From the NCBI GenBank assembly GCA_942491275.1, contig CALNZI010000006.1, forward strand, positions 73,899 to 137,898: a stretch of 64,000 nt of DNA. The letters run 5' to 3'. Below, piece by piece: positions 1,271 to 30,837 of this stretch. The translations under genes were made by a program, and so were the position numbers. Position 1 is the first letter of the stretch. The number at the start of each line of letters is the position of its first letter. The notes beneath the pieces are model-generated. The model was not told the DNA's origin. It worked only from the letters and a program-made list of their open reading frames with translations, and ran no database searches. The stretch is from Minisyncoccota bacterium (lineage in GTDB: Bacteria > Patescibacteriota > Minisyncoccia > Phycocordibacterales > UBA9973).

Positions 1271-2272
1271 TTATTTGGAAAAGATTTGATTTCCATACTT
1301 TATTAAGCTTCTCATCCTCCAAGGACGAAGAGTTGCTACTGAGCCTAAGGCTATTCCCTTTACAATTTTAAATTGTGAAAGTCGGAATATGTCCTTTTTT
1401 CTCATTATTCCACCGCCGGCGATTATAGAGACAGTGTTATCGTATCGTTGCATTTCTCTCAGCCAAGCTGTGAGTAATGGGAAGAGTGGTGCACCAGACA
1501 ACCCTCCTTTAAATCTACCACCAAAGTGTTTAGTTAATGGTGACTTTTCTCTTGGGAAAAGTTTTTTCCACCATCCTCTACTTTCTTTCTCACCAAAACC
1601 AATGGTATTGGTTAAACAGAACGCATCACAATATGGCTTAAGAGAAACAATTGTTTCCGGTTCAATCAAAAGATTAAACTTTGGAATCAAAATAAGATCT
1701 GGAACCATTTTTCTAAATATAGATAAAATCTTAATGATCTCAGATGGATCTTGTCTTTCATCGTGTCCAGTGTTGGGACATGAAAAGTTTATCTGTAACG
1801 CATAATTAAACTCATGATAGCCAGAAACACCAGCTGATAAGATTCGACAAAAATCCATTGCTTCATCGATTTTTTCTTCAAGTGTTACACCAACTGGCAT
1901 AAAAGAAATTTGAAATGGTTCTTTTCTAATCTGCCATTTACCATAGAAAAACATTTCAAACGCACCCAGGTTTGCTAAGCCAACTGCGTTTAATAGGTAG
2001 CCTTTTAATATAGATTTAAAACTAAACCATATTGATTTAGGAAAAAATCTTTTTAGTTTATACCCATCACGAAGTTCCGTGTTGGATGAAGTAGGATATA
2101 TTCTTGGATTTAAAGTAATTGTTTTAGAAACAAACACCATGTCTTTAAAATTAAATCCTGGGAATATTCGACACCATTTATGGTGTGGGTGTTCATCCGG
2201 TTCATCAAAGAAACCTTGAACGCCAGATTGTCCGAAGACAAAATGTTTAAAATCTAAGTGTTTTATCTTCAT
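1271..2272 (-). CDS. pyrD: dihydroorotate dehydrogenase-like flavin TIM-barrel oxidoreductase
   Basis: Track ORF of 333 aa. DHOD-family motif series: LLNAVGLANLG, NFSCPNT, LIPKFN, LTNTIG, GGLSGAPL, IIAGGGI. Confidence 0.7.
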   Translation of the reverse strand: MKIKHLDFKHFVFGQSGVQGFFDEPDEHPHHKWCRIFPGFNFKDMVFVSKTITLNPRIYPTSSNTELRDGYKLKRFFPKSIWFSFKSILKGYLLNAVGLANLGAFEMFFYGKWQIRKEPFQISFMPVGVTLEEKIDEAMDFCRILSAGVSGYHEFNYALQINFSCPNTGHDERQDPSEIIKILSIFRKMVPDLILIPKFNLLIEPETIVSLKPYCDAFCLTNTIGFGEKESRGWWKKLFPREKSPLTKHFGGRFKGGLSGAPLFPLLTAWLREMQRYDNTVSIIAGGGIMRKKDIFRLSQFKIVKGIALGSVATLRPWRMRSLIKYGNQIFSK

Positions 2273-2350
2273 CTTTTCTGTTTTATGTGATTATTATATT
2301 TTGAATGAGGTTTATTTCTTTGTTCGAAATATACCACAGAATCTATATTG

Positions 2351-2388
2351 TGGCAAATAAAAGAAGGTATCACTTTACAGCAATACCT
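2351..2388 (-). terminator. intrinsic terminator after the OMPdc-OPRT gene
   Basis: Stem aggtat/atacct (2365-2370 / 2383-2388), followed on the minus strand by TCTTTTATTT. Confidence 0.5.
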
Positions 2389-2420
2389 CCTTAATTTTAA
2401 TTTAGTTTGTTGAATTTTAT

Positions 2421-3875
2421 TTATTTACGCATAGCATCTTCTAGTTTCTGCCATTCATGTTTAGGCTTCAAAACAATATTAGATGCTTTTAAATGAGCTT
2501 GAACTTTTTCATCCGTTTGTTCATATTGGTCAGTAGGTAAATCTACTACCGAAACAACAGGTCTACTCCAGAACATTATTTTACTCGGTTGTGATCTATT
2601 AACAATACACGCGATACCATCAACTTCGGCTCCAAATGAATCAACCAAACTACAAAGTTCTTTAGTTGTTGAAAAGTTATTACAAAGATCTTCAATAATA
2701 AAAACGCGGGCGTCTTTACTAATATTATGTCTTTTCACAACTAATTTACTCGTGTCTTTGGTATTTTTTGTTTTATCACCTAATTCAAGGGTTACTTTCT
2801 CTGCAAAAGCAAATTCACAATTTAATTCTTGTGAAAGTGCCTGTGCTAAAGCGATACCTCCCATAGGAGCTCCTAAAACAACATCTATGACAAACCCAAG
2901 ACTTGTCAATTTTTCCGCTAATATCCCAGCAAAATATTTTAGAATACGAGGGTTTTGTTCGATACGAGCCATGTTGTAATAATGGTAACCTACCTTAGGT
3001 TTTCCATCCTCACCTTTTCCAGCATATGCAACTAAGGGTCCTAGATAATTATTTTTATCATCTTGAGGACTCACATATACCGCTTGGAAATTTTTAAGTG
3101 TTTGCAAATGATCATTAGGCACTATTATTTGTGCTTTTTCTATTTCCTTAATAGTCATAGCAACGCTTTCTTCTGCACTAATTCCGTTCTCAGGGTTTCC
3201 TTTAGTTATCTGAGCACCCATAACAACATAATCAGCACCATTTTCGAAAGCGAAACGAACACCATTCGATCTTTTCTGTTGACCACTTTTCATCCACGAA
3301 TCTCTTATTCCAGGAACAATTAACTTCATTTCTGGAAAAGCCTTCTTCAAACTAGATACTTCTAATGGTGAACACACTACCGCATCAAGAACATCAGGGC
3401 ATAATTCATTAATAACACAAGTATCCTCAATGATCTTGCCTATTGGATCTATCCCATAACGCAGGTAACATTCCTCTTCGCTTGTATCAGTTAATACGCT
3501 GACTAATGCCAGTTTAGTATTAGGTAATAGTTCACGAACTTCTTTAAAAGTAGTACTACTACAACATTCACGAATAGTTAATATGTCTGGAAACAATCCA
3601 ATTCCTGTGTATTGTTTCAAAATATTCAAATTCGTGCCAGAAGTATCTGATAATTTTAAATCAAGAAATATTTTTATATTCCAAAATTCATTTTTAATCA
3701 ACCAGTCTTGTACATCTTGCATAACATTACATCCACTCTCGCCATAAACAACATCGTTTAACTTGATGTGAGAAATAATATCTTTTGCATTTGGGATACT
3801 AAGAATAGCCTCTAGTTTTTTCTGAACTCCTCTCGAGTTATAAAAACCATCAATCGGTACAATTACATTTTTCAT
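2421..3875 (-). CDS. pyrF/pyrE: fusion protein: N-terminal OMP decarboxylase-like domain + C-terminal orotate phosphoribosyltransferase domain
   Basis: 484 aa. N-terminal half has FLDLKLSDTSGT (the DxKxxD-type OMPdc motif) and VVMGAQIT. C-terminal half has the type-I PRTase PRPP loop VFIIEDLCNNFSTTKE. Confidence 0.8.
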   Translation of the reverse strand: MKNVIVPIDGFYNSRGVQKKLEAILSIPNAKDIISHIKLNDVVYGESGCNVMQDVQDWLIKNEFWNIKIFLDLKLSDTSGTNLNILKQYTGIGLFPDILTIRECCSSTTFKEVRELLPNTKLALVSVLTDTSEEECYLRYGIDPIGKIIEDTCVINELCPDVLDAVVCSPLEVSSLKKAFPEMKLIVPGIRDSWMKSGQQKRSNGVRFAFENGADYVVMGAQITKGNPENGISAEESVAMTIKEIEKAQIIVPNDHLQTLKNFQAVYVSPQDDKNNYLGPLVAYAGKGEDGKPKVGYHYYNMARIEQNPRILKYFAGILAEKLTSLGFVIDVVLGAPMGGIALAQALSQELNCEFAFAEKVTLELGDKTKNTKDTSKLVVKRHNISKDARVFIIEDLCNNFSTTKELCSLVDSFGAEVDGIACIVNRSQPSKIMFWSRPVVSVVDLPTDQYEQTDEKVQAHLKASNIVLKPKHEWQKLEDAMRK

Positions 3876-4035
3876 TTTTATCGTTTTAGTTTATATGTGA
3901 GAAAATAAATTCAACTTTTTCAAAGTGCAATATATACTTGTGACTATACTATGAATATGCTTCTAGGTCAATAGCAAGTATACTCCTCTTGTAATTAACT
4001 TAAACCACTGTCACTTTTGCCACTTTTCATAGACA

Positions 4036-4127
4036 CACGAGAAGGGTCAAATTATTTAAATAAAAGTATATAAAATAACCTTACTGGTCAATAAATCAAT
4101 TGGTTCTATCTCGAGAACCCTCACAAA
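4036..4127. repeat. copy 1 of an 82-bp perfect direct repeat (plus 10 nt at 8/10 identity)
   Basis: cacgagaagggtcaaattatttaaataaaagtatataaaataaccttactggtcaataaatcaattggttctatctcgagaa at 4036-4117, identical to 4896-4977. Confidence 0.95.
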
Positions 4128-4128
4128 T

Positions 4129-4782
4129 TTAATTATCTAATTTAAAAAATTTAGTTTTTTCTCCATTAACAACTATAACTTCCCCATCCCTTAATGTTTT
4201 GTATGGTATATTATTTTTTTCATAATATTCAATTTCCTTATCTATGTCTGATGACTCAGGATGATCTGATTTATAATGCACAGCTATGTGGTAATCTAAA
4301 ATACCTAGTCCATTCCAACTAAAATCTAATTTATATCCCTGTGGAACTATTGATGGATCATCAACAATCTCTAATCCTTTTAATGACTTAGAAAGAATAA
4401 CAACACCAGCACTGAAACCAGAGTAAATAATCTCATCTTTCAAAATCATATCTTTTATAAGATTATCAAAACCACTCTGTTCATATGCACGCTTAAGCAC
4501 AAAAGTATTACCTCCATAAACCCAAACCATCCCAAAATTAAGAAGATGTTTTTTAAGTTCATCTTTTTTATTAAAGTAATTTCTTAAATCAATTTGTTCT
4601 GGCTTAAAACCTAAAGACTTTAAAACGTCTATTTGATCATTAAGACTCGCAGCTACTCTTTCTTTATCATCACTCCAGTCTACTGCATTCATAATCACCC
4701 CAACCTTTTTATTATCAAGTCTAAGTTTTACTAATTCTTCAGTATAATTTCCAAATTTGTATGATGATAAATATAATCTCAT
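4129..4782 (-). CDS. peptidase S51 (dipeptidase E-like) family protein
   Basis: 217 aa. Contains VYGGNTF and the nucleophile-elbow-like GFSAG, with overall peptidase E-like length and layout. Confidence 0.7.
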   Translation of the reverse strand: MRLYLSSYKFGNYTEELVKLRLDNKKVGVIMNAVDWSDDKERVAASLNDQIDVLKSLGFKPEQIDLRNYFNKKDELKKHLLNFGMVWVYGGNTFVLKRAYEQSGFDNLIKDMILKDEIIYSGFSAGVVILSKSLKGLEIVDDPSIVPQGYKLDFSWNGLGILDYHIAVHYKSDHPESSDIDKEIEYYEKNNIPYKTLRDGEVIVVNGEKTKFFKLDN

Positions 4783-4895: not shown

Positions 4896-4987
4896 CACGA
4901 GAAGGGTCAAATTATTTAAATAAAAGTATATAAAATAACCTTACTGGTCAATAAATCAATTGGTTCTATCTCGAGAAGTCTCACAAA
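4896..4987. repeat. copy 2 of the 82-bp perfect direct repeat
   Basis: Identical to 4036-4117 (offset 860 nt). Both copies sit just 3' of a minus-strand gene. Confidence 0.95.
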
Positions 4988-5032: not shown

Positions 5033-5578
5033 CTAAAGTTCAATTCCAAAAGATTTTAGCAAGGATACAAAAATTTCTTTTCCTTCCTTTAATTCTCTTT
5101 TGTCGTAGATTTTACGAATAATCAGGGCCGCAATTTGTCTCATTTTTTTAATGTCCTGGATTGCAAGCATTCTAATCCTCAACATTAACATACAGGACTC
5201 ATCTCCCAATTCCGGTAAACCAGAAAAAGATAAGTAATAATCATCTCCATTATTTAAATTTAAGAAAATAGCTCCTCCAAATTCATTACTGTCTGGGTTT
5301 CTGCTGTCCCATGATGTGTAATGTCTTTTGCCCATTTTTCTTAAACGACAAAGCCTGTCTGGTTTTTCCTGAGAAAGATTAAAGTATTTTGCTACCTTAA
5401 GTTTATCCTCAATAATTCCAATTTTATATATTGAGTTAATTTCTCCATCCGCATTTTTTACGGTTAGATATCCTCCTTGGCGACTCCCTTTTTTTGTAAG
5501 ATCTTCTGGAAGTTTAAGATAAGCGAAGAGTACTTCTTCCATCTTCGTCTTGATTTGATTTGTTAAATCTAAATTCAT
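5033..5578 (-). CDS. hypothetical protein (181 aa)
   Basis: Track ORF with a good upstream promoter-like element. No recognisable motifs. Confidence 0.5.
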   Translation of the reverse strand: MNLDLTNQIKTKMEEVLFAYLKLPEDLTKKGSRQGGYLTVKNADGEINSIYKIGIIEDKLKVAKYFNLSQEKPDRLCRLRKMGKRHYTSWDSRNPDSNEFGGAIFLNLNNGDDYYLSFSGLPELGDESCMLMLRIRMLAIQDIKKMRQIAALIIRKIYDKRELKEGKEIFVSLLKSFGIEL

Positions 5579-5949: not shown

Positions 5950-6267
5950 TTAATTAACACTACTTACTATTTTCAATTTTCTTTCTTTACGGGGAACATT
6001 TATTCCTCTTAATAAATTTAATTTACTTGGGATAATTTTAGACTCCCAATCAACTGAGTTATCAATACCAATAAGATGATATTTTTTTCTCCCACAATTA
6101 CACCTACCAGCAATAATTTTACCATCTCTGTGATAAATTTTATTTATTGCATGTTTTGTTTCTTCTGGAATTTGTTTATTCAATTCTTGAAATAAATCCC
6201 TATTTATTTCAATTTGGTCCAAAAAATTATTTGTTGGATTCTCGTCAAAGTCAATTAAAAAACACAT
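5950..6267 (-). CDS. hypothetical protein (105 aa)
   Basis: Track ORF with SD-like aaggagg upstream (reverse complement of 6273-6279). Contains CNCG..H; no family recognised. Confidence 0.45.
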   Translation of the reverse strand: MCFLIDFDENPTNNFLDQIEINRDLFQELNKQIPEETKHAINKIYHRDGKIIAGRCNCGRKKYHLIGIDNSVDWESKIIPSKLNLLRGINVPRKERKLKIVSSVN

Positions 6268-6594: not shown

Positions 6595-6945
6595 TTAACG
6601 AGCAACTTCCTCTTGAAAAACATAATCTTCTAAAGTTTCTTCTATTTCTTTAAAGGAATTTATCTTACTAAAATCAAATTCCTTAATTAGCTTTAAAAGT
6701 AACAACCGAGCATTTTTAATTCGATTTTTTGTCTCTGGCGGTAACTTTGACCCTTCCAACTTTAAAATTGATTTTTCAAGTTTAAAATCTAAGCTTTCCT
6801 CAAAATAACGAGGAATAAACTTCTCGATAAAACTTGATTCATTAGAATTTTTATCCAGTATCGCTACTCGATAGAGTCTTAATAATGTTGGTAACGTCTG
6901 AAGCTTCAGCTCTTTTTCAGTAATTTCAATCTTTTTCTTTGCCAT
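6595..6945 (-). CDS. hypothetical protein (116 aa)
   Basis: Track ORF. A hairpin aattccccc/gggggaatt (6542-6573) lies just downstream. Confidence 0.45.
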   Translation of the reverse strand: MAKKKIEITEKELKLQTLPTLLRLYRVAILDKNSNESSFIEKFIPRYFEESLDFKLEKSILKLEGSKLPPETKNRIKNARLLLLKLIKEFDFSKINSFKEIEETLEDYVFQEEVAR

Positions 6946-20266: not shown

Positions 20267-21934
20267 CTAAATCACTTCCTGCTGATAACATTGTTCACAG
20301 TATACTATCTCAGACCTATCTGGGGAATAGTTTGTTTTTATATCCTTATTACAATGAGCGCACTTACGATCCCAGAATTTATAAGGTCCTCGTCTTTGAA
20401 CTCTGTCTTGATGTCGACAAAAAAAACACTTTCTCGGAATCGGCAAAACCATTTTTCGATAAAACAACAACTCCTGTTCAGTAATTTTATAATTTCTCTG
20501 ACAATCTATACATTTTAATACTTCTTTTGTAATTTCATCTTTAATATTATTTATGTGATCAGATATTTCTTCTGGTTGCAATGTTTCTTTACCTATTGTT
20601 ACTTGAATCCCCTCCTCCCATTTATAACCCAAAGACAAGGCTTCTTCTTTTGTTAAAGGCATATTGTCTTGCCCTATTGTCTCATTATAGGCAAAAGGCG
20701 CTAATTCTGGTGGTATCATTAATCCGTAAACTTCTTTTTGTTTTAATTCTGTGATTATATATTCTTTTATTTTTTCATATTCCTTTTTAGTGTATTGCTT
20801 ATTTAAAATACAATATTCCTTATTTCTTAAACCATCACATCCAATACAATCATGACAATTATGCAATGAGACCGAATATATAATATTCTGTGAATGAGTG
20901 ATATTGCAAGAACCTATTATATTGGAAGAGTAGCCCGTGGCAACACACTCAAGAAGTCTATCAGCCCTAAATCCAAATCCTGTTGCTCCAATAGAATCTT
21001 TCGTCTCCTTGGTTGCAAATAAGTATTTACTATCTTCACATTTAGTTTCCTCAAAAGAATTTTTAACATTTTTACACTCAATAAGATAATCACCTGTTGA
21101 GTTTATGGATTTTAAATTATTATTTTCACGGGCTGGTTGTTCTTTTTTAAATTCAATAAATTTCTTTTTAAATTCCTCTATCTTAAAATAACTTCCTAAA
21201 ATTTCATTAGTAAATTTATCGTACTCTTCTTTGGAGACTTCTTTATTAAAAATATGGTGAGATTTATTTCTTAAATTTACACAACCAAAACAATTGGTAC
21301 AACCACTAAGATCTGAAACAAAATGACAATCAACACAACCGCTAATATTCTTTCCGTAAATTATTTTGGAAGACTTAGAAAAACTCACACACTCATATAT
21401 TAATTCTGATTTAAACCCATAGTAAGAATCTGCTATTTCTTGTGAATGTCGAACTCCTCGTGTATAAAGAGACTCTTCGGCTGGTCCCGTATTAAAAACT
21501 AAGTAACAATTCTTTAAACCACCAGCAAAATTACAATAATCACTATTTACATTACCCCCAATATCATCAGAGATATAGGTGGTTCTTTTGAGAACCTTTT
21601 TAAAAAGTTCATCCAATTGTTCAAAAAATGGTTTATTGAGATCATAATCCATAGCATAATCACCAGGGTTCCACTTATCTGATTTATAATAATCATGGGA
21701 AACAACCAGGTAGTCTGATTTTGGATTATACATTGAAATAATAGGTTCTCCTGTCTTATCACACTTACGGTTATATAAAGTCATTTCGTTCCTCCATAAA
21801 GCTCTTGCTTTAAACCGACAGTTAGGACATTCTCCTGGAATAGAAGCCCCCATTTTTTCATAGAAAGAAAAATCATCTTCTTCTAGAACGAAGTTTCCTT
21901 TACATCTATTGCATTGTCGATTTTCAGTTTTCAT
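20267..21934 (-). CDS. Cys-rich zinc-ribbon repeat protein, paralog 3 (function unknown)
   Basis: 555 aa. N- and C-terminal CxxC...CPxC ribbons with an FYEKM/FYRKM motif. The internally duplicated middle region has halves ending CTNCFGCVNLRNK / CHDCIGCDGLRNK. Confidence 0.75.
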   Translation of the reverse strand: MKTENRQCNRCKGNFVLEEDDFSFYEKMGASIPGECPNCRFKARALWRNEMTLYNRKCDKTGEPIISMYNPKSDYLVVSHDYYKSDKWNPGDYAMDYDLNKPFFEQLDELFKKVLKRTTYISDDIGGNVNSDYCNFAGGLKNCYLVFNTGPAEESLYTRGVRHSQEIADSYYGFKSELIYECVSFSKSSKIIYGKNISGCVDCHFVSDLSGCTNCFGCVNLRNKSHHIFNKEVSKEEYDKFTNEILGSYFKIEEFKKKFIEFKKEQPARENNNLKSINSTGDYLIECKNVKNSFEETKCEDSKYLFATKETKDSIGATGFGFRADRLLECVATGYSSNIIGSCNITHSQNIIYSVSLHNCHDCIGCDGLRNKEYCILNKQYTKKEYEKIKEYIITELKQKEVYGLMIPPELAPFAYNETIGQDNMPLTKEEALSLGYKWEEGIQVTIGKETLQPEEISDHINNIKDEITKEVLKCIDCQRNYKITEQELLFYRKMVLPIPRKCFFCRHQDRVQRRGPYKFWDRKCAHCNKDIKTNYSPDRSEIVYCEQCYQQEVI

Positions 21935-21937
21935 AAA

Positions 21938-23608
21938 TTAGATAACCTCTTGTTGGTAACACTTCTCACAATATAAAATTGGAGCAACTTCTTTTGTTAA
22001 GTTTGTTAAAGTATTTTCTCCACAGCTTGAACAGTCTCTATTAAAGAACTCCATGGAACCTCGAAGAACAACACGATCTTCGTATCGACAATAAAAACAC
22101 TTCCTCGGAATCGGCAAAACCATTTTTCGGTAGAAAAGTAATTCTTGCTCAGTAATTTTATAGTTTCTTTCACAGGAAATACACTTTAATATCTCTTTAG
22201 TAATTTTACCCTCAACATCATTTATATGATCAGGAATTTCTTCTATTTGTAATGTTTCTTTGCTTTTAGTCATTTGAATATCATCTTCCCAGCGGAAACC
22301 TTGAGCTAAAGCCTCCTCTCTAGAAAATGGCATATTGGTTTGAGCTATTGTTTCATTATAAGCAAATGGCGCTATTTCTGGAGGCATCATTAAGCCGTGG
22401 ATTCCCAAATCTACGAGCTCCTTAATTATGTGTGTCTTTAATTCTTCATATTCTTCTTTAGAATATTCTTTATTAAAAATAGAATATTTACCGTTTCTTA
22501 AAGCATCACAACCAATACAATGTTGGCAATTTCTTAAATCAAAGGAATACATAATATTACTAGAATTTTCAGCCCAAAAAGAGCCTATTACATTACTAGA
22601 AAATCCAGTCGCAACCACTTCCAACAATAAATCAGATTTTGTTCCATAGCCGATAGTTCCCAAAGAATCCTTTATGTTCTTTGAGGAAAATAGATAGCGA
22701 CAATCCTCTGCCTTAGCAGCTTCAAATGAATTAAAAACATTCTTACATTCAAAAAGATAATCTCCTGTGGAATTAAATGCTTTAAGATTATTGTTTGCTC
22801 TTCGAGGAAGAGCTTTTAAAAATTCAAAAAATTTATTTTTTGCTTCTTCTGTTTTTTTATAACTTCCTCTTATTTCTTCAATCCTTTTTTTATATTCCTC
22901 GGGACTCAATCGTTCATTAAAATAGTGATTACTTTTATTTCTTAAATTAACACAACCAAAACAATTAGTAAGACCACTTCCATTTAAAACAAAAGAAGAG
23001 TCAACACAACTAATTATATTTTGTCCCCATAAAATACCCGATGATTCTTGAACATTTATACATTCATAACAATTTTCAAATTTAACACCAAAATAAATAT
23101 CAGAAGAAAAAACTCCACTATTAACTCCTCGAGAATACAATAATTCTTCGGAAGGACTAGTATTAAAAACTAAATAGCAATTTTTACAACCACCAGCCAT
23201 GTTTACATATTCACTATTTATATTTTGTCCATCGCCAGTAGAAATACCCAAATTTATTTTAGGAACTTTTATTAAAAATTCTTTCATTTGATCAAAGAAT
23301 GGTCGGGTTTTATCGTATTCTGTTGCGTAATCCTTAGGATCCCAATTCTCAGAATAAAAACAATCATAACAATACTTTTTATATGGCGATTTGGGATTAT
23401 ACATTGTAATAATACTTTTTTGACACACATCACATTTTTGCCCTGAATAAAGCATTGTTTCATTCCTCCACATAGCCCTCATTTTAAAACGACAATCTGG
23501 GCAAACATTTGGTGCAGGAACTTTCATTTTTTCATAGAAAGAGAAATCATCTTCTTCTAAAATAAAGTTTTCTTTACATCTATTGCATTGTCGATTTTCA
23601 GTTTTCAT
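21938..23608 (-). CDS. Cys-rich zinc-ribbon repeat protein, paralog 2 (function unknown)
   Basis: Start chosen at MKTENRQCNRC (ATG 23608) by comparison with the paralogs. The track ORF starts 12 codons earlier and overlaps the upstream gene. Confidence 0.75.
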   Translation of the reverse strand: MKTENRQCNRCKENFILEEDDFSFYEKMKVPAPNVCPDCRFKMRAMWRNETMLYSGQKCDVCQKSIITMYNPKSPYKKYCYDCFYSENWDPKDYATEYDKTRPFFDQMKEFLIKVPKINLGISTGDGQNINSEYVNMAGGCKNCYLVFNTSPSEELLYSRGVNSGVFSSDIYFGVKFENCYECINVQESSGILWGQNIISCVDSSFVLNGSGLTNCFGCVNLRNKSNHYFNERLSPEEYKKRIEEIRGSYKKTEEAKNKFFEFLKALPRRANNNLKAFNSTGDYLFECKNVFNSFEAAKAEDCRYLFSSKNIKDSLGTIGYGTKSDLLLEVVATGFSSNVIGSFWAENSSNIMYSFDLRNCQHCIGCDALRNGKYSIFNKEYSKEEYEELKTHIIKELVDLGIHGLMMPPEIAPFAYNETIAQTNMPFSREEALAQGFRWEDDIQMTKSKETLQIEEIPDHINDVEGKITKEILKCISCERNYKITEQELLFYRKMVLPIPRKCFYCRYEDRVVLRGSMEFFNRDCSSCGENTLTNLTKEVAPILYCEKCYQQEVI

Positions 23609-23612
23609 ATTA

Positions 23613-25274
23613 TTAAGATATTTCTTTTTGATAACACTTCTCACAGTGTATCTTATATTTATAATGTTTGTTTTTAGAATAGGTCGTTAATATTTTTTGA
23701 CTACAGGAAACACAAGATGTTTCATTTAAGAAACGTGGATTGCGTCTATCCATTCTATCTTGATGTCGACAATTGAAACATTTTTTAGGGATAGACAAAC
23801 CCATCCTTTTATAAAAAGCAATTTCTCGAGAAATTAATTTGTAATTTTTCTCGCAGGATTCACATTTAAAAATTTTATCTAAAAGATCATTATTGTAATC
23901 TTTTGGATTTTCTGGTAAATCTTTGTGAAAATAATTTTCTTGCCCCCTTGTACTTGGGATATTTTCTCTCCAAGTAAAACCTTGCTCCAGAGCTTGATCT
24001 TTAGTTAGTGGCATATATTCATTAGCAATTGATTCATTATAAGCAAAAGGGGTCATGGAAGCTTTGAAGAAATTCCCCCAGTCTCCATCTTTTTTCATAG
24101 CCTCAACAATTTGTGAAAATAGTTTTTCATAGTCTTCTTTTGTATATTGCTTATTCAAAATACAATATTCTTTATTTCTTAAGCCAAAACAACCAAGAAG
24201 GTTCTTAGAATTCATGCATGTATCTGAGTAATAAACATGGGAGGAATCGTGAATTAAATGACCAGAAATTAAATTACTACTAGAAACACTCGCTAGGTTT
24301 TGGTAACTATATTCAATATATGGATTAAAGGAAATATCATAGGTTTCTACTGGTTTGCTTGTGGTATAGCAATACCGGCTATTTTCTCCCCCCTGTGAAT
24401 CAAAAGAATAATGAACACTATGCGCATGATAAACGTGATCCCCAGAAACATTTTCATTATGAGATCCATAGGTTGCTCGAGTTGGAATTTTTTTTCTAAG
24501 CTCTTCTTTTTTATTTAAAATATAAATTATACTTGATTCTTCGTTTAATGGATATTTATTTAAAAATTCCTGATACTCTTCTTTTGAAACAGGTTGATTA
24601 AAAATATGATAGGACTTTTGACGTAAGCCAACACAACCAATACAATTAGTACAACCTCGACAATCATAGAGACCAATTGAATCTACGCATGATTCACATT
24701 CCTGAGAATAGAGCAATTTATTACAAGACAAACAATCTACGCAATCATAACAAAGCTCACTTTTGTGAACATATAAATTATCTACACAATCAATTGAGTT
24801 CCAAACTATGTGTCCATAATCACAGGCTTCATCTTCTACACAACCAAAAACTAAATAGCAATTATTAGATTTCCAAGTAAAATTTGAATACTCACAATTA
24901 GTGCTCTTTGTATTCATCAAAGCAAAATGCGGAACTTTATTAAAAAGTTCATCAACTTGATCTAAAAATGGTCTTTCGGGATTATAATCCATGGAATAAT
25001 CCATAGCGTCCCAATCGTCGGTATACCATTCAGGAATATCCCAAACTGGAAACTTTGCATCTGTGTTATACATTGAGATGATCATTTCTTTTGACTTATC
25101 AGATGGGCGTCTGTATAAAGTTTTGAAATTTCTAAAAAGCATCCTCTGTTGATTCCGACAAGTTGGACAAAAATCAGGTGCCGGAACTTTCATTCTTTCA
25201 TAAAAAATAAAATCATTCTCATCAATTAAGAATTCCATCTCGCATTTTTTACAATTTTTATTTTCAGATTTCAT
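23613..25274 (-). CDS. Cys-rich zinc-ribbon repeat protein, paralog 1 (function unknown)
   Basis: 553 aa. Same architecture (MKSENKNCKKCEMEF..FYERM..CPTCR ... CFNCRHQDR ... HCEKCYQKE). Confidence 0.75.
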   Translation of the reverse strand: MKSENKNCKKCEMEFLIDENDFIFYERMKVPAPDFCPTCRNQQRMLFRNFKTLYRRPSDKSKEMIISMYNTDAKFPVWDIPEWYTDDWDAMDYSMDYNPERPFLDQVDELFNKVPHFALMNTKSTNCEYSNFTWKSNNCYLVFGCVEDEACDYGHIVWNSIDCVDNLYVHKSELCYDCVDCLSCNKLLYSQECESCVDSIGLYDCRGCTNCIGCVGLRQKSYHIFNQPVSKEEYQEFLNKYPLNEESSIIYILNKKEELRKKIPTRATYGSHNENVSGDHVYHAHSVHYSFDSQGGENSRYCYTTSKPVETYDISFNPYIEYSYQNLASVSSSNLISGHLIHDSSHVYYSDTCMNSKNLLGCFGLRNKEYCILNKQYTKEDYEKLFSQIVEAMKKDGDWGNFFKASMTPFAYNESIANEYMPLTKDQALEQGFTWRENIPSTRGQENYFHKDLPENPKDYNNDLLDKIFKCESCEKNYKLISREIAFYKRMGLSIPKKCFNCRHQDRMDRRNPRFLNETSCVSCSQKILTTYSKNKHYKYKIHCEKCYQKEIS

Positions 25275-26704: not shown

Positions 26705-27292
26705 TTAATTTTTTAACCATTTATTGTATTCTTCAATAATTTTCTCAACAACACCCTCCAGTGGAATTTTTTCTGTATCAATTATAAAATCAAAATTTTC
26801 TGGAGCAGAATTATTTTCTATTCCATATAATTCTTTATATCTATTTTTTTCTAAAATTAATCTTTCTGAGATAGAGCTCAAAATGTTTTCTTTTGTGTTA
26901 AAATCGTCAGCTGTTTCCAATTGTCGATTAGGATTATTTTTCTTATCTTCTAAAATTCTCTGAGCTGCAATGTTAGGATCAAGTTCAAGAAACACTTTAA
27001 AAGAATTAGGGATAAAATGAAAACCCAAACGTGAATCTAGAACAACGTTATTTTCTGTTTCCCCAATTTTTGTACTTCTCTCATCTACCTCTTTATCAAC
27101 AGATAAATCTGTTTCCGCTGCTTTATTAAGTTCAACGGTGGAAATACCCCTTTCGTTGGCAATGGATCTGAAAAAATCACCCGTAGAAAAATGCTTATAT
27201 TCAAGAATTTCGGCTAATTTCTTTGCGGTAGAAGATTTTCCACTACCTAATTTACCAGCAATGGTAATAATTTGTTTTTTGTTCATTATCAT
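26705..27292 (-). CDS. nucleoside-monophosphate kinase, cytidylate kinase-like
   Basis: 195 aa. P-loop IAGKLGSGKSSTAK; NMP-kinase size and layout. Confidence 0.6.
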   Translation of the reverse strand: MIMNKKQIITIAGKLGSGKSSTAKKLAEILEYKHFSTGDFFRSIANERGISTVELNKAAETDLSVDKEVDERSTKIGETENNVVLDSRLGFHFIPNSFKVFLELDPNIAAQRILEDKKNNPNRQLETADDFNTKENILSSISERLILEKNRYKELYGIENNSAPENFDFIIDTEKIPLEGVVEKIIEEYNKWLKN

Positions 27293-28641: not shown

Positions 28642-30837
28642 ATGAAAGAAGAACAGCCCAACATCAACCCTAAATTTTTAGAACCATATAATCCTCAGGA
28701 AACTGAAGATCGAATCTACAAACTCTGGGAAGATAGTGGGTTTTTTAATCCTGATGTTTGCGTAGAAAAAGGAATAATTGATGAAAAAGCTGAACCTTTC
28801 TCCATTGTATTACCTCCACCCAACGTTACAGGAACACTTCACATCGGACATGCTTCAATGTTAACCATTGAAGATATTATGGTTCGTTTTGCTCGAATGC
28901 AAGGAAAAAGAACCCTTTGGCTTCCTGGAACAGATCACGCGGCTATCGCGACACAATCAAAAGTTGAAAAGATTTTAATGAAAGAAGAGAAAAAAAGAAA
29001 AACAGATCTAGGAAGAGAAGAATTTTTAAAAAAAGTTAATACCTTTGCTCAAGAGAGTCATGACACAATTATAAGTCAGATGAAAAAAATTGGAACATCT
29101 GTTGATTGGTCTCGAGAAGCATTCACCCTAGACGACAAAAGGACTCTCGCAGTTCGTACTGCCTTCAAAAAAATGTACGATGATGGCTTAATTTATCGTG
29201 GACATAGGATAGTTAACTGGGATCCAAAAGGGCAAACAGTTATTTCGGATGATGAAATAATCCACGAAGAAAGAAAAGCTAAGATATATACCTTTAAATA
29301 TAGTTCAGGCTTCCCTATTTCAATATCAACAACACGTCCTGAAACAAAAGTCGGAGATACAGCTGTAGCTGTTCATCCCGATGACCGTCGGTATAAAGAA
29401 TATATAGGTAAAACTTACACTATAGAAAATTTCTGTGGTGTGAAATTAGAAATAAAAATTATTGCTGATCATTCGGTAGAAAAAGATTTCGGAACAGGAG
29501 CCCTTGGAGTAACTCCTGCTCACAGTCAAATAGATGCGGAAATCGCTCAACGACATAATTTAGAAAGTAAGCAGGTCATTAATGAATTTGCAAAAATGAC
29601 CGTAGGGGGAGAAGAAATTTTAGATAAAAAAACAACAGTAGCCAGAGAAGCAATAGTTCAGTGGTTAATAAATGAAAACCTTCTAGAAAAAGAAGAAGAA
29701 ATTATACAAAATATATCTACAGCCGAAAGAACTGGAGGAATAATAGAACCTCTTCCAAAATTACAATGGTTCATTGATGTTAATAAACCAATAATAAATC
29801 GTGACAATAAAACATTAAAAGAACTAATGCTAGACGCTGTTCGAAATAAAAAAATTGATATTATCCCTAATCACTTTGAAAAAGTTTATTTCAATTGGAT
29901 AGAAAATTTAAGAGATTGGTGTATCTCTCGCCAAATATGGTATGGACACCAAGTCCCTGTTTGGTATAAAGAAAAAGAAATATATTGTAATATTGAAGCT
30001 CCAAATGAAAAAGGTTGGACTCAAGATGAAGACACTTTAGATACCTGGTTTTCTTCTGGACTTTGGACTTTTTCCACTTTGGGTTGGCCAGACCTAAATT
30101 CTGAAGATTTTAAAAAATATCATCCAACAACTGTTTTAGAAACTGGATATGACATATTATTCTTCTGGGTAGCTCGAATGATTCTAATGAGTACCTATTT
30201 AATTGGAGAAATTCCATTTAAAACAGTCTACCTCCAAGGTATAGTTCGTGATGCCCAAGGGAGAAAAATGAGCAAATCTCTAGGTAACGCTCTAGATCCA
30301 CTGGAAGTTAGTGAAAAATATGGAGCCGATGCAGTTAGAATGTCTCTGATTATTGGCACCGGCCCTGGTAATGACAGTAAAATGTCAGAAGATAAAATAC
30401 GTGCCTATAAAAATTACGCCAATAAACTTTGGAATATCACCCGTTTTGTTTTAAGTAATACGACTGATGTAAAATATGATGAGAAATTCGAAAAATATTC
30501 AAAAGAAGATTTAAAATTACGAAAAGAAAGACATTCGGTTTTAGTAGAAATAACTAAAGATATGGATAATCTTCGATTCTACTTAGCTGGAGAAAAAATT
30601 TATCAATATACTTGGGCTCGTTTTGCCGACGTAATCATCGAAGATAGTAAAAAAATATTTGAAAACGGAAATAAAGATCAAATAGAATCAAGAAAACAAT
30701 TCCTACTCCATACACTGGTAAAAATATTAACAGTCCTTCACCCTTTTATGCCTTTCGTTACTGAAGAAATATGGTCCTTGCTTCCCGTTGAAAATAAAAA
30801 ATTATTAATGGTAACAAAATGGCCTATTGTAAAATAA
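28642..30837 (+). CDS. valS: valine--tRNA ligase (short form)
   Basis: 731 aa. PPPNVTGTLHIGHA and KMSKSLGN. It appears to lack the long C-terminal coiled coil of typical ValRS. Confidence 0.9.
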   Translation: MKEEQPNINPKFLEPYNPQETEDRIYKLWEDSGFFNPDVCVEKGIIDEKAEPFSIVLPPPNVTGTLHIGHASMLTIEDIMVRFARMQGKRTLWLPGTDHAAIATQSKVEKILMKEEKKRKTDLGREEFLKKVNTFAQESHDTIISQMKKIGTSVDWSREAFTLDDKRTLAVRTAFKKMYDDGLIYRGHRIVNWDPKGQTVISDDEIIHEERKAKIYTFKYSSGFPISISTTRPETKVGDTAVAVHPDDRRYKEYIGKTYTIENFCGVKLEIKIIADHSVEKDFGTGALGVTPAHSQIDAEIAQRHNLESKQVINEFAKMTVGGEEILDKKTTVAREAIVQWLINENLLEKEEEIIQNISTAERTGGIIEPLPKLQWFIDVNKPIINRDNKTLKELMLDAVRNKKIDIIPNHFEKVYFNWIENLRDWCISRQIWYGHQVPVWYKEKEIYCNIEAPNEKGWTQDEDTLDTWFSSGLWTFSTLGWPDLNSEDFKKYHPTTVLETGYDILFFWVARMILMSTYLIGEIPFKTVYLQGIVRDAQGRKMSKSLGNALDPLEVSEKYGADAVRMSLIIGTGPGNDSKMSEDKIRAYKNYANKLWNITRFVLSNTTDVKYDEKFEKYSKEDLKLRKERHSVLVEITKDMDNLRFYLAGEKIYQYTWARFADVIIEDSKKIFENGNKDQIESRKQFLLHTLVKILTVLHPFMPFVTEEIWSLLPVENKKLLMVTKWPIVK

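Follow-up and report, generated by a model that had tools for sequence, protein, structure and literature searches.

Two neighbouring minus-strand genes in a 64-kb stretch of contig CALNZI010000006.1 from a Minisyncoccota bacterium (hereafter, the window) very probably encode the last three enzymes of uridine monophosphate (UMP) synthesis, which would convert dihydroorotate to UMP in a single pathway. The upstream gene is a pyrF-pyrE fusion whose 484-aa product is predicted to be a bifunctional orotidine monophosphate (OMP) decarboxylase/orotate phosphoribosyltransferase (OPRT), that is, a UMP synthase with its domains in reversed order. The downstream gene, pyrD, encodes a 333-aa protein assigned as a divergent dihydroorotate dehydrogenase (DHOD). 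The two genes were assigned to one pathway because the N-terminal half of the fusion is an OMP decarboxylase, its C-terminal half is best explained as an OPRT and the neighbouring protein is a DHOD. In the proposed route, PyrD, as an FMN-dependent class-1-type enzyme with C165 as the base, would oxidise dihydroorotate to orotate; the C-terminal domain of the fusion would couple orotate with phosphoribosyl pyrophosphate (PRPP) to give OMP; and the N-terminal domain, of the short bacterial type, would decarboxylate OMP to UMP. An earlier note on this DNA had proposed such a terminal module. Four lines of observation support it here: the domains recognised, the catalytic residues conserved, the fold and the linkage to other pyr genes; the actual substrates and activities are predicted from these. 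The 64 kb of the window are a fraction of a genome several times larger, its contig alone being 156 kb long.

Calling of the open reading frames (ORFs) and translation placed both genes where the earlier note had put them, and Pfam recovered the domain order it had given. The fusion translation contains FLDLKLSDTSGT (aa 70-81) and VFIIEDLCNNFSTTKE (aa 391-406), the motifs quoted for the two halves. Pfam assigns OMPdecase to aa 62-226 (8.8e-13) followed by Pribosyltran at aa 304-453 (2.1e-14), both above the gathering threshold, and the top NCBIfam matches are pyrF PRK00230 (1.5e-21) and pyrE_Therm TIGR01367 (6.5e-15). The AlphaFold2 (AF2) model was obtained with a pLDDT of 95 and a pTM of 0.87, and its top whole-chain fold match is the UMP synthase of Leishmania donovani (3qw4). 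Among 5.8 billion proteins searched, over 100 full-length homologues share this domain order; they stem from independent assemblies and have 38-49% identity. The fused gene is present in 30 of the 80 loci retained from 167 related loci in GTDB species genomes. The order OMP decarboxylase-phosphoribosyltransferase (PRT) is therefore real and no assembly artefact. All homologues with a named source are labelled Patescibacteria, Parcubacteria or Falkowbacteria; some are called 'orotidine 5'-phosphate decarboxylase / HUMPS family protein' by NCBI and OMPdc/OPRT by JGI. The best match to the window fusion among GTDB representatives has 44% identity, and 1.84 billion cluster representatives gave 111 matches at E<=1e-30. 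Among the best 150 cluster-representative matches, stand-alone halves outnumber fused versions, and for either half the nearest relatives are encoded by split genes (57% and 60% identity), so fusion and fission seem to be frequent in this clade. The OMP decarboxylase-OPRT fusion is widespread in Patescibacteria.

The identity of the N-terminal half was assessed from residues, profiles and fold. OMP decarboxylases are told apart from the KGPDC/HPS family by the residue of strand beta2, Lys instead of a metal-binding Glu, and their catalytic set comprises the beta1 Asp, the beta2 Lys and the beta3 Asp-x-Lys-x-x-Asp. In the alignment of 103 homologues of the fusion family, D9 is kept in 100 sequences and K38, D72, K74 and D77 in all of them; R191, in the PGIR motif, and Q200 are invariant, and R202 is invariant or nearly so. 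These residues line up with their equivalents in E. coli PyrF. The Pfam score of this half is 49.1 bits against a gathering threshold of 27, and it reaches 54.9 bits with NCBIfam TIGR01740, for which the cut-off is 92.3. Comparison of the family profile of the barrel region with the PDB gave OMP decarboxylases exclusively, from 3e-15, and the AF2 model superposes on 8cso (Klebsiella pneumoniae), 1dbt (Bacillus subtilis) and 1eix (E. coli) with a TM(target) of 0.74-0.83. A KGPDC/HPS identity was also considered and was rejected: no such chain appeared in the PDB at E<=1e-3 nor any such model in NCBIfam, and the beta2 residue is an invariant Lys. The earlier assignment to an OMP decarboxylase-type barrel was thus upheld.

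The C-terminal half belongs to a divergent clade of type I phosphoribosyltransferases, here called PRT-C, and is best explained as an OPRT, the clade appearing nearest to the Helicobacter pylori/Thermus-type enzymes. Among the NCBIfam PRT models, pyrE_Therm ranks first and the next follows only at 6e-10. The family profile of the PRT region matches the H. pylori OPRT 4paw at 7.8e-10, while every other PRT in the PDB, purine and adenine enzymes included, was found at 5e-6 or worse. The fold points the same way, with 4paw as the best match (TM 0.8) and adenine phosphoribosyltransferases (APRTs) at TM 0.69. The acidic pair E395-D396 and R427 are invariant in the fusion family. In an alignment with E. 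coli OPRT, R427 falls on R156, Y299-F/Y300-N301 on the YFFN hood and E359-K360-K361 on R-K-E-A-K with the flexible-loop Lys, all tentative positions at about 15-20% identity.

Genomic linkage is the strongest evidence for the OPRT role of PRT-C, which is always accompanied by pyrF, pyrC, pyrD or pyrB genes. It directly follows a near-canonical pyrF in many split loci (L040, for example), it is fused behind a short pyrF in the window type, and it is fused behind a long type-2 pyrF in loci L048, L063 and L075. In the alphaproteobacterium Lichenihabitans sp. (contig CBDCBM010000004.1; locus L078, 7051-11764), a compact operon has the order pyrD-pyrC-pyrF(type 2)-X-pyrB, where X is a PRT-C member of 249 aa occupying the pyrE slot. 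The pyrF and pyrB of this operon pass their NCBIfam equivalog cut-offs (236.6 against 110.6 and 265.9 against 236.95 bits, respectively). It seems likely that X is a pyrE that has gone unrecognised, and it may have been exchanged with Patescibacteria. In the precomputed Pfam annotations, nearly all listed stand-alone PRT-C members lack PF00156, and NCBI names stand-alone members 'hypothetical protein', including the homologue of X in the cultured Lichenibacterium dinghuense.

For the 333-aa protein, Pfam DHO_dh was found at aa 91-296 (5.7e-11, above gathering). In an alignment of 111 homologues, K50, N162, C165, K198 and N222 are kept in all sequences, N167 in 110 and N64 in 101, and the GGLSG and GGG motifs are also conserved. 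In Lactococcus lactis DHODA, the FMN/orotate ligands and the Cys base are K43, N67, N127, C130, N132, K164 and N193. The conserved set would therefore constitute a class-1 FMN/orotate site with the Cys base within N-x-S-C-P-N. The family profile found the PyrD subunit of L. lactis DHOD B (1ep1) at 2.9e-19, in an alignment that spans NxSCPN, the Lys and GGLSG, class 1A enzymes at about 6e-10 to 1e-9 and dihydropyrimidine dehydrogenase (DPD) at 6e-4. The AF2 model (pLDDT 93.8) has only DHODs among its top 50 fold matches, with a modest TM of about 0.63. The protein thus groups with the DHODs, as the earlier note had expected. An identity as DPD or its PreA-like subunit was rejected on the profile values, the top 50 folds and the presence of pyrC downstream of relatives.

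The neighbourhoods of relatives connect this DHOD-like clade with the pathway. A metagenome scan yielded 70 further loci of the family, as an unbiased sample, 44 of them with at least 600 nt of downstream sequence; in 25 of these 44, pyrC lies directly downstream of the DHOD-like gene on the same strand, and other loci of the scan adjoin pyrF, pyrE-like genes or pyrB. Among seven Pfam-annotated loci picked through the DHOD-like protein itself (L006-L008 and L094-L097), an E. coli-type dihydroorotase gene is directly downstream in four and an OPRT-OMP decarboxylase fusion adjoins in one. The clade stands beside pyrC in L007, L008, L094, L095, L022 and L056, and in L022 pyrC lies between pyrD and the pyrE/pyrF gene. 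Clustering of the neighbours of 80 fusion/PRT-C loci found the DHOD-like clade in about 16, with about 10 strong family matches; no pyrB, carAB or transporter gene recurred beside the fusion in these 80 loci, and the remainder were mostly housekeeping genes.

In locus L006 (6274-9011), PyrD is 72% identical to that of the window and lies in a similar greA/aspS/mraZ/mraW block. Its partner is a 512-aa fusion of a canonical OPRT followed by a type-2 OMP decarboxylase, in the opposite order and on the opposite strand compared with the window. This is a non-orthologous replacement of the partner gene at a conserved locus, in which the pairing of pyrD with pyrE/pyrF survives, and it supports a single pathway and argues against an accessory island. 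Other placements of the clade were also observed: pyrD-pyrC is found inside a ribosomal-protein operon, between the S8 and L5 genes, in L008 (7175-10860), and immediately upstream of S14-S8-L6 genes in L094 (6001-9978). In L096 (6001-8521), the DHOD-like gene adjoins a 475-aa protein with an MGS-like domain of the CarB C-terminal type and a cytosine-deaminase-like amidohydrolase (PRK06886, 334.9 bits), which is a candidate alternative dihydroorotase.

Several observations weigh against this assignment and were considered together. All NCBIfam scores are far under the equivalog cut-offs (76.8 against 193 bits for pyrF and 55 against 150 for pyrE_Therm with the 484-aa protein, and about 26 against 267-448 for the pyrD models with the 333-aa protein), indicating that both fusion halves and the DHOD-like protein are divergent members of their families. 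The PRPP 5-phosphate loop reads N399-N400-F401-S402-T403 instead of T-x-G-x-T, and APRT structures match the fold of the C-terminal half only moderately worse than OPRTs do. The two genes may also be separate transcription units, given a terminator-like hairpin and a promoter-like site in the spacer between them, although this is only suggested because promoter and terminator consensus matches were not enriched over shuffled sequences. Since no PyrK-type (FAD/2Fe-2S) partner or other acceptor gene was found beside PyrD in the window or in L006-L008 and L094-L097, PyrD was not placed in class 1A or 1B.

A further point concerns phosphate binding in the decarboxylase. The Arg of a C-terminal 'GR' motif is one of the phosphodianion grippers of OMP decarboxylase, together with the PGIR Arg and a Gln. 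In the N-terminal half this set is partial, with the PGIR Arg and the Gln present and the 'GR' Arg absent (two of three). The corresponding position 221 is Arg in none of the 103 homologues (Ala in 74, Ser in 19, Gly in 6, Thr in 3 and Glu in 1), being Ala in the window protein. This lowers the certainty of the assignment and yet does not exclude the protein from the OMP decarboxylase family, since near-canonical stand-alone PyrF proteins of the Candidate Phyla Radiation (CPR) lack the residue as well. These are encoded in L040 (9905-10717; 183.9 bits against a cut-off of 193) and L043 (9803-10582), with MGTS in its place, while the PyrF proteins of L044, L049, L053 and L088 retain GRP, so the 'GR' Arg appears to have been lost more than once in CPR. 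Near the site, Q222 is kept in 102 of the 103 homologues and K225 in 92, and either could possibly compensate for the loss.

Taken together, the absent Arg, the NNFST loop, the scores under all cut-offs, the APRTs as close second fold matches and the naming of some homologues as adenine/guanine PRT-like by JGI could mean that the fusion works on non-canonical substrates, with a base other than orotate for the PRT or a substrate other than OMP for the decarboxylase. This was judged improbable, as D9, K38, D72-x-K74-x-x-D77, the PGIR Arg and the Gln are invariant or nearly so, R427 aligns with R156 of E. coli OPRT, and the near-canonical CPR PyrF proteins share the missing 'GR' Arg. In addition, the PRT clade is constantly associated with pyr genes, and in an alphaproteobacterium it occupies the pyrE position of a complete pyr operon. 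Even less probable is that the 333-aa protein is another flavin TIM-barrel oxidoreductase, such as a PreA-like subunit of DPD, so that no single pathway would exist. Single-sequence matches to solved DHODs are weak (E about 0.02), the N-terminal 80 aa or so do not align with them, and NCBI names homologues 'hypothetical protein' or 'HisA/HisF-related'. Against this stand the preference of the family profile for DHODs over DPD by many orders of magnitude, the uniform fold matches, the SCPN motif with N167, conserved along with K50, N64, N162, K198 and N222, and the pyrC gene directly downstream in most loci. The assignment as OMP decarboxylase, OPRT and DHOD is therefore retained as by far the most probable.

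A different question, compatible with these enzymatic assignments, is that of physiology. The same enzymes may serve a truncated pathway that lacks carAB, pyrB and pyrC and converts host- or community-derived dihydroorotate or orotate to UMP, which we regard as a possibility of rather less than even standing. The absence of adjacent pyrB, pyrC and carAB, remarked on in the earlier note, holds for all 64 kb of the window. E. coli CarA, CarB, PyrB, PyrI and PyrC and a CPR PyrC, used as tblastn queries, gave no match there, and Pfam scans of 48 window ORFs found no pyrB, pyrC or carAB. Moreover, L006, L031, L034, L037 and L038 show a similar arrangement, with pyrD beside a pyrE/pyrF fusion and pyrC missing from the surrounding 8-10 kb, and Patescibacteria as a group are described as generally incapable of de novo nucleotide synthesis (PMC11809585). 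On the other side, only 64 kb of a much larger genome is visible, and most relatives carry pyrC immediately behind their pyrD of this clade. In some lineages, pyrB (L099) or carAB (L046 and L050, near split pyrF-pyrE) lies beside family members, purine de novo genes occur near the L007 locus, and no orotate or dihydroorotate transporter was identified. The pairing with pyrC in 25 of 44 loci and the carAB genes near split pyrF-pyrE in two indicate that the PyrD clade is part of longer pathways in at least some lineages. Tentatively, the lineage represented by the window, L006, L031, L034, L037 and L038 might have lost pyrC, pyrB and carAB and kept only pyrD and the pyrE/pyrF fusion, the ultra-small symbiont completing UMP from dihydroorotate or orotate leaked by the host. 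Its enzymes would be of divergent clades to which standard annotation gives the name 'hypothetical', namely an OPRT with an NNFST PRPP loop, an OMP decarboxylase lacking the gripper Arg and a class-1 DHOD of no assigned subclass; the pyrimidine capacity of Patescibacteria would then be systematically under-called. A literature search for Patescibacteria with OPRT or dihydroorotate returned nothing relevant.

Two other genes of the window touch this question. Apart from the pyr genes, the scanned ORFs of the window include a single recognised gene of nucleotide metabolism, a (d)CMP-kinase-like gene of archaeal type (TIGR02173, 96.4 against a cut-off of 102.1 bits); pyrH and pyrG were not seen. 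The left end of the window cuts off an ORF of at least 333 aa that lies immediately downstream of pyrD, where many relatives carry pyrC; it has no Pfam or NCBIfam match.

The coordinates of these features are collected in Table 1. The window has a G+C content of about 31-33% and is a typical Patescibacteria core region, with mraZ, mraW, ftsI, several mur ligases, murJ, murB, alr, aspS/asnS, greA, tsaD, class I tRNA synthetases, type IV pilus genes and five tRNAs. Upstream of the fusion, a Peptidase_S51 gene is bracketed by a 92-nt direct repeat (4036-4127 and 4896-4987, 98% identical, 860 nt apart). Both copies are situated immediately 3' of minus-strand genes and contain a terminator-like hairpin, GGTTCTCGAGATAGAACC. 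The repeat has the appearance of a duplicated 3' trailer or of a scar left by an insertion. Three orphan ORFs without a family match follow (5033-5578, 5950-6267 and 6595-6945), and then murF. The repeats and orphan genes mentioned in the earlier note are thus present. Its ParB-like gene was not recovered, no window ORF scanned having a ParB family match, and its description of the surroundings as an accessory-looking patch is not supported: murF and the dcw/mraZ cluster lie at a distance of about 3 kb from the genes, and this proximity together with the similar block in L006 places them in the core chromosome.

Table 1. Location of the two pyrimidine genes, their domains and surrounding features in the window.
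Feature	Coordinates	Strand	Basis
pyrF-pyrE fusion gene, 484 aa, predicted bifunctional OMP decarboxylase/OPRT (reversed-order UMP synthase)	2421..3875	minus	ORF, Pfam, NCBIfam, AF2 fold
N-terminal OMP decarboxylase domain, aa 1-245, short bacterial type	3141..3875	minus	residue conservation, E. coli PyrF alignment, fold
C-terminal type I PRT domain, aa 246-484, divergent OPRT clade PRT-C	2424..3140	minus	profile, fold, residues, genomic linkage
pyrD, divergent class-1-type DHOD, 333 aa	1271..2272	minus	Pfam, residues, profile vs PDB, AF2, linkage to pyrC
Spacer between fusion and pyrD, 148 nt	2273..2420	minus	gene boundaries
Terminator-like hairpin in spacer	2392-2361	minus	consensus scan
Promoter-like site in spacer	2356-2328	minus	consensus scan
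Promoter-like site TTGACC-17-TATAGT upstream of fusion gene	3943..3971	minus	consensus scan
Peptidase_S51 gene upstream of fusion	4129-4782	minus	Pfam
Partial ORF, at least 333 aa, downstream of pyrD	3-1001	minus	ORF; no Pfam or NCBIfam match
Three consecutive large ORFs (555, 568 and 553 aa)	20267-25274	minus	between Mur ligase genes
(d)CMP-kinase-like gene, archaeal type	26705-27292	minus	TIGR02173
Second class I tRNA synthetase gene	28642-30837
Leucyl-tRNA synthetase gene, 947 aa	40674-43517	minus	NUDIX domain besides editing domain

Some further features of the window were recorded. A Peptidase_S51 (PepE/cyanophycinase-like) gene is found within 10 kb of pyrF-pyrE or PRT-C in eight loci (the window, L026, L027, L031, L044, L081, L087 and L088), in a longer form of about 440 aa in three of them, and no functional link to pyrimidine synthesis is evident. 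The leucyl-tRNA synthetase carries its NUDIX domain at aa 405-506. The three consecutive large ORFs among the Mur ligase genes have no Pfam match.

With respect to its significance, the module is in most ways an ordinary biosynthetic gene pair, and fusions with reversed domain order had been recognised before in kinetoplastids, stramenopiles and cyanobacteria. Metabolic reconstructions, however, routinely deny nucleotide synthesis to Patescibacteria, while the OPRT-like and DHOD-like clades escape annotation through their divergence. The failure occurs at three levels, as nearly all listed stand-alone PRT members lack PF00156 in the precomputed annotations, the NCBIfam cut-offs are all missed, and NCBI often assigns the name 'hypothetical protein'. 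Recognition of these proteins as PyrE and PyrD would fill apparent gaps of the pyrimidine pathway in many CPR genomes and some Alphaproteobacteria. In addition, an OMP decarboxylase family that naturally lacks the gripper Arg offers a ready test of how the contribution of that residue can be replaced.

Regarding known systems, the single domains were compared with their closest characterized counterparts. The N-terminal half shares the TIM barrel, the Asp/Lys/DxKxxD set, LT(S/D), PGIR and Q-x-R with bacterial short-type PyrF (1eix, 1dbt and 8cso), and differs from it in the replacement of the 'GR' Arg by Ala, Ser or Gly, in a segment inserted before the VVCS strand and in the fused PRT. The C-terminal half finds its best profile and fold match in the H. 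pylori OPRT HP1257 (4paw)/TIGR01367, and its C-terminal KPK..W tail also occurs in a pyrE_Therm-like CPR protein; in contrast to that type, a longer loop connects its EK(K) motif with the PRPP motif, and the PRPP loop reads E-D-x-C-N-N-F-S-T where 4paw/pyrE_Therm have D/E-D-x-x-T-T-G-G-S. PyrD shares the Lys and Asn residues and the Cys of N-x-S-C-P-N with class 1 DHODs (1ep1, and the fumarate-dependent class 1A enzymes of L. lactis and trypanosomatids), at about 17% identity and the modest TM given above, and has an N-terminal region of its own (GASGVQGFFGE...) and an insertion.

As for the whole architecture, the OMP decarboxylase-OPRT order has been described for kinetoplastids, oomycetes, diatoms and some cyanobacteria (PMC2705460). 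The likeness to trypanosomatids drawn in the earlier note is apt in that the UMP synthase of L. donovani agrees with the window fusion in domain order and in the two predicted activities and gives the best whole-chain fold match (E 2.4e-17). The order is, on the other hand, neither rare nor eukaryote-like, given the cyanobacterial cases, its spread in Patescibacteria and an NCBIfam equivalog model for bacterial bifunctional OMP decarboxylase/OPRT (NF004034/PRK05500, cut-off 656 bits). The resemblance to 3qw4 is also low, with 13% identity, a root-mean-square deviation of about 11.5 A and a whole-chain TM of 0.42-0.46, the domain packing being different, and the fusion-family profile matches 3qw4 in the PRT region only (3e-5), which points to an independent fusion. 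NF004034 shares the domain order and predicted function with the window fusion, which has no match to it at E<=0.1 and is thus of analogous architecture and not a member. Proteins with a long type-2 pyrF domain match NF004034 in that domain, which suggests that the model was built on type-2 pyrF; the CPR variant of L048, L063 and L075, with type-2 pyrF and PRT-C, matches PRK05500 weakly (54 bits). The Patescibacteria fusion appears to have arisen independently of both the kinetoplastid/stramenopile and the cyanobacterial ones, and it is best seen as a further, apparently independent case of a known kind of fusion, in which a short-type OMP decarboxylase is joined to an OPRT clade related to those of Thermus and Helicobacter.

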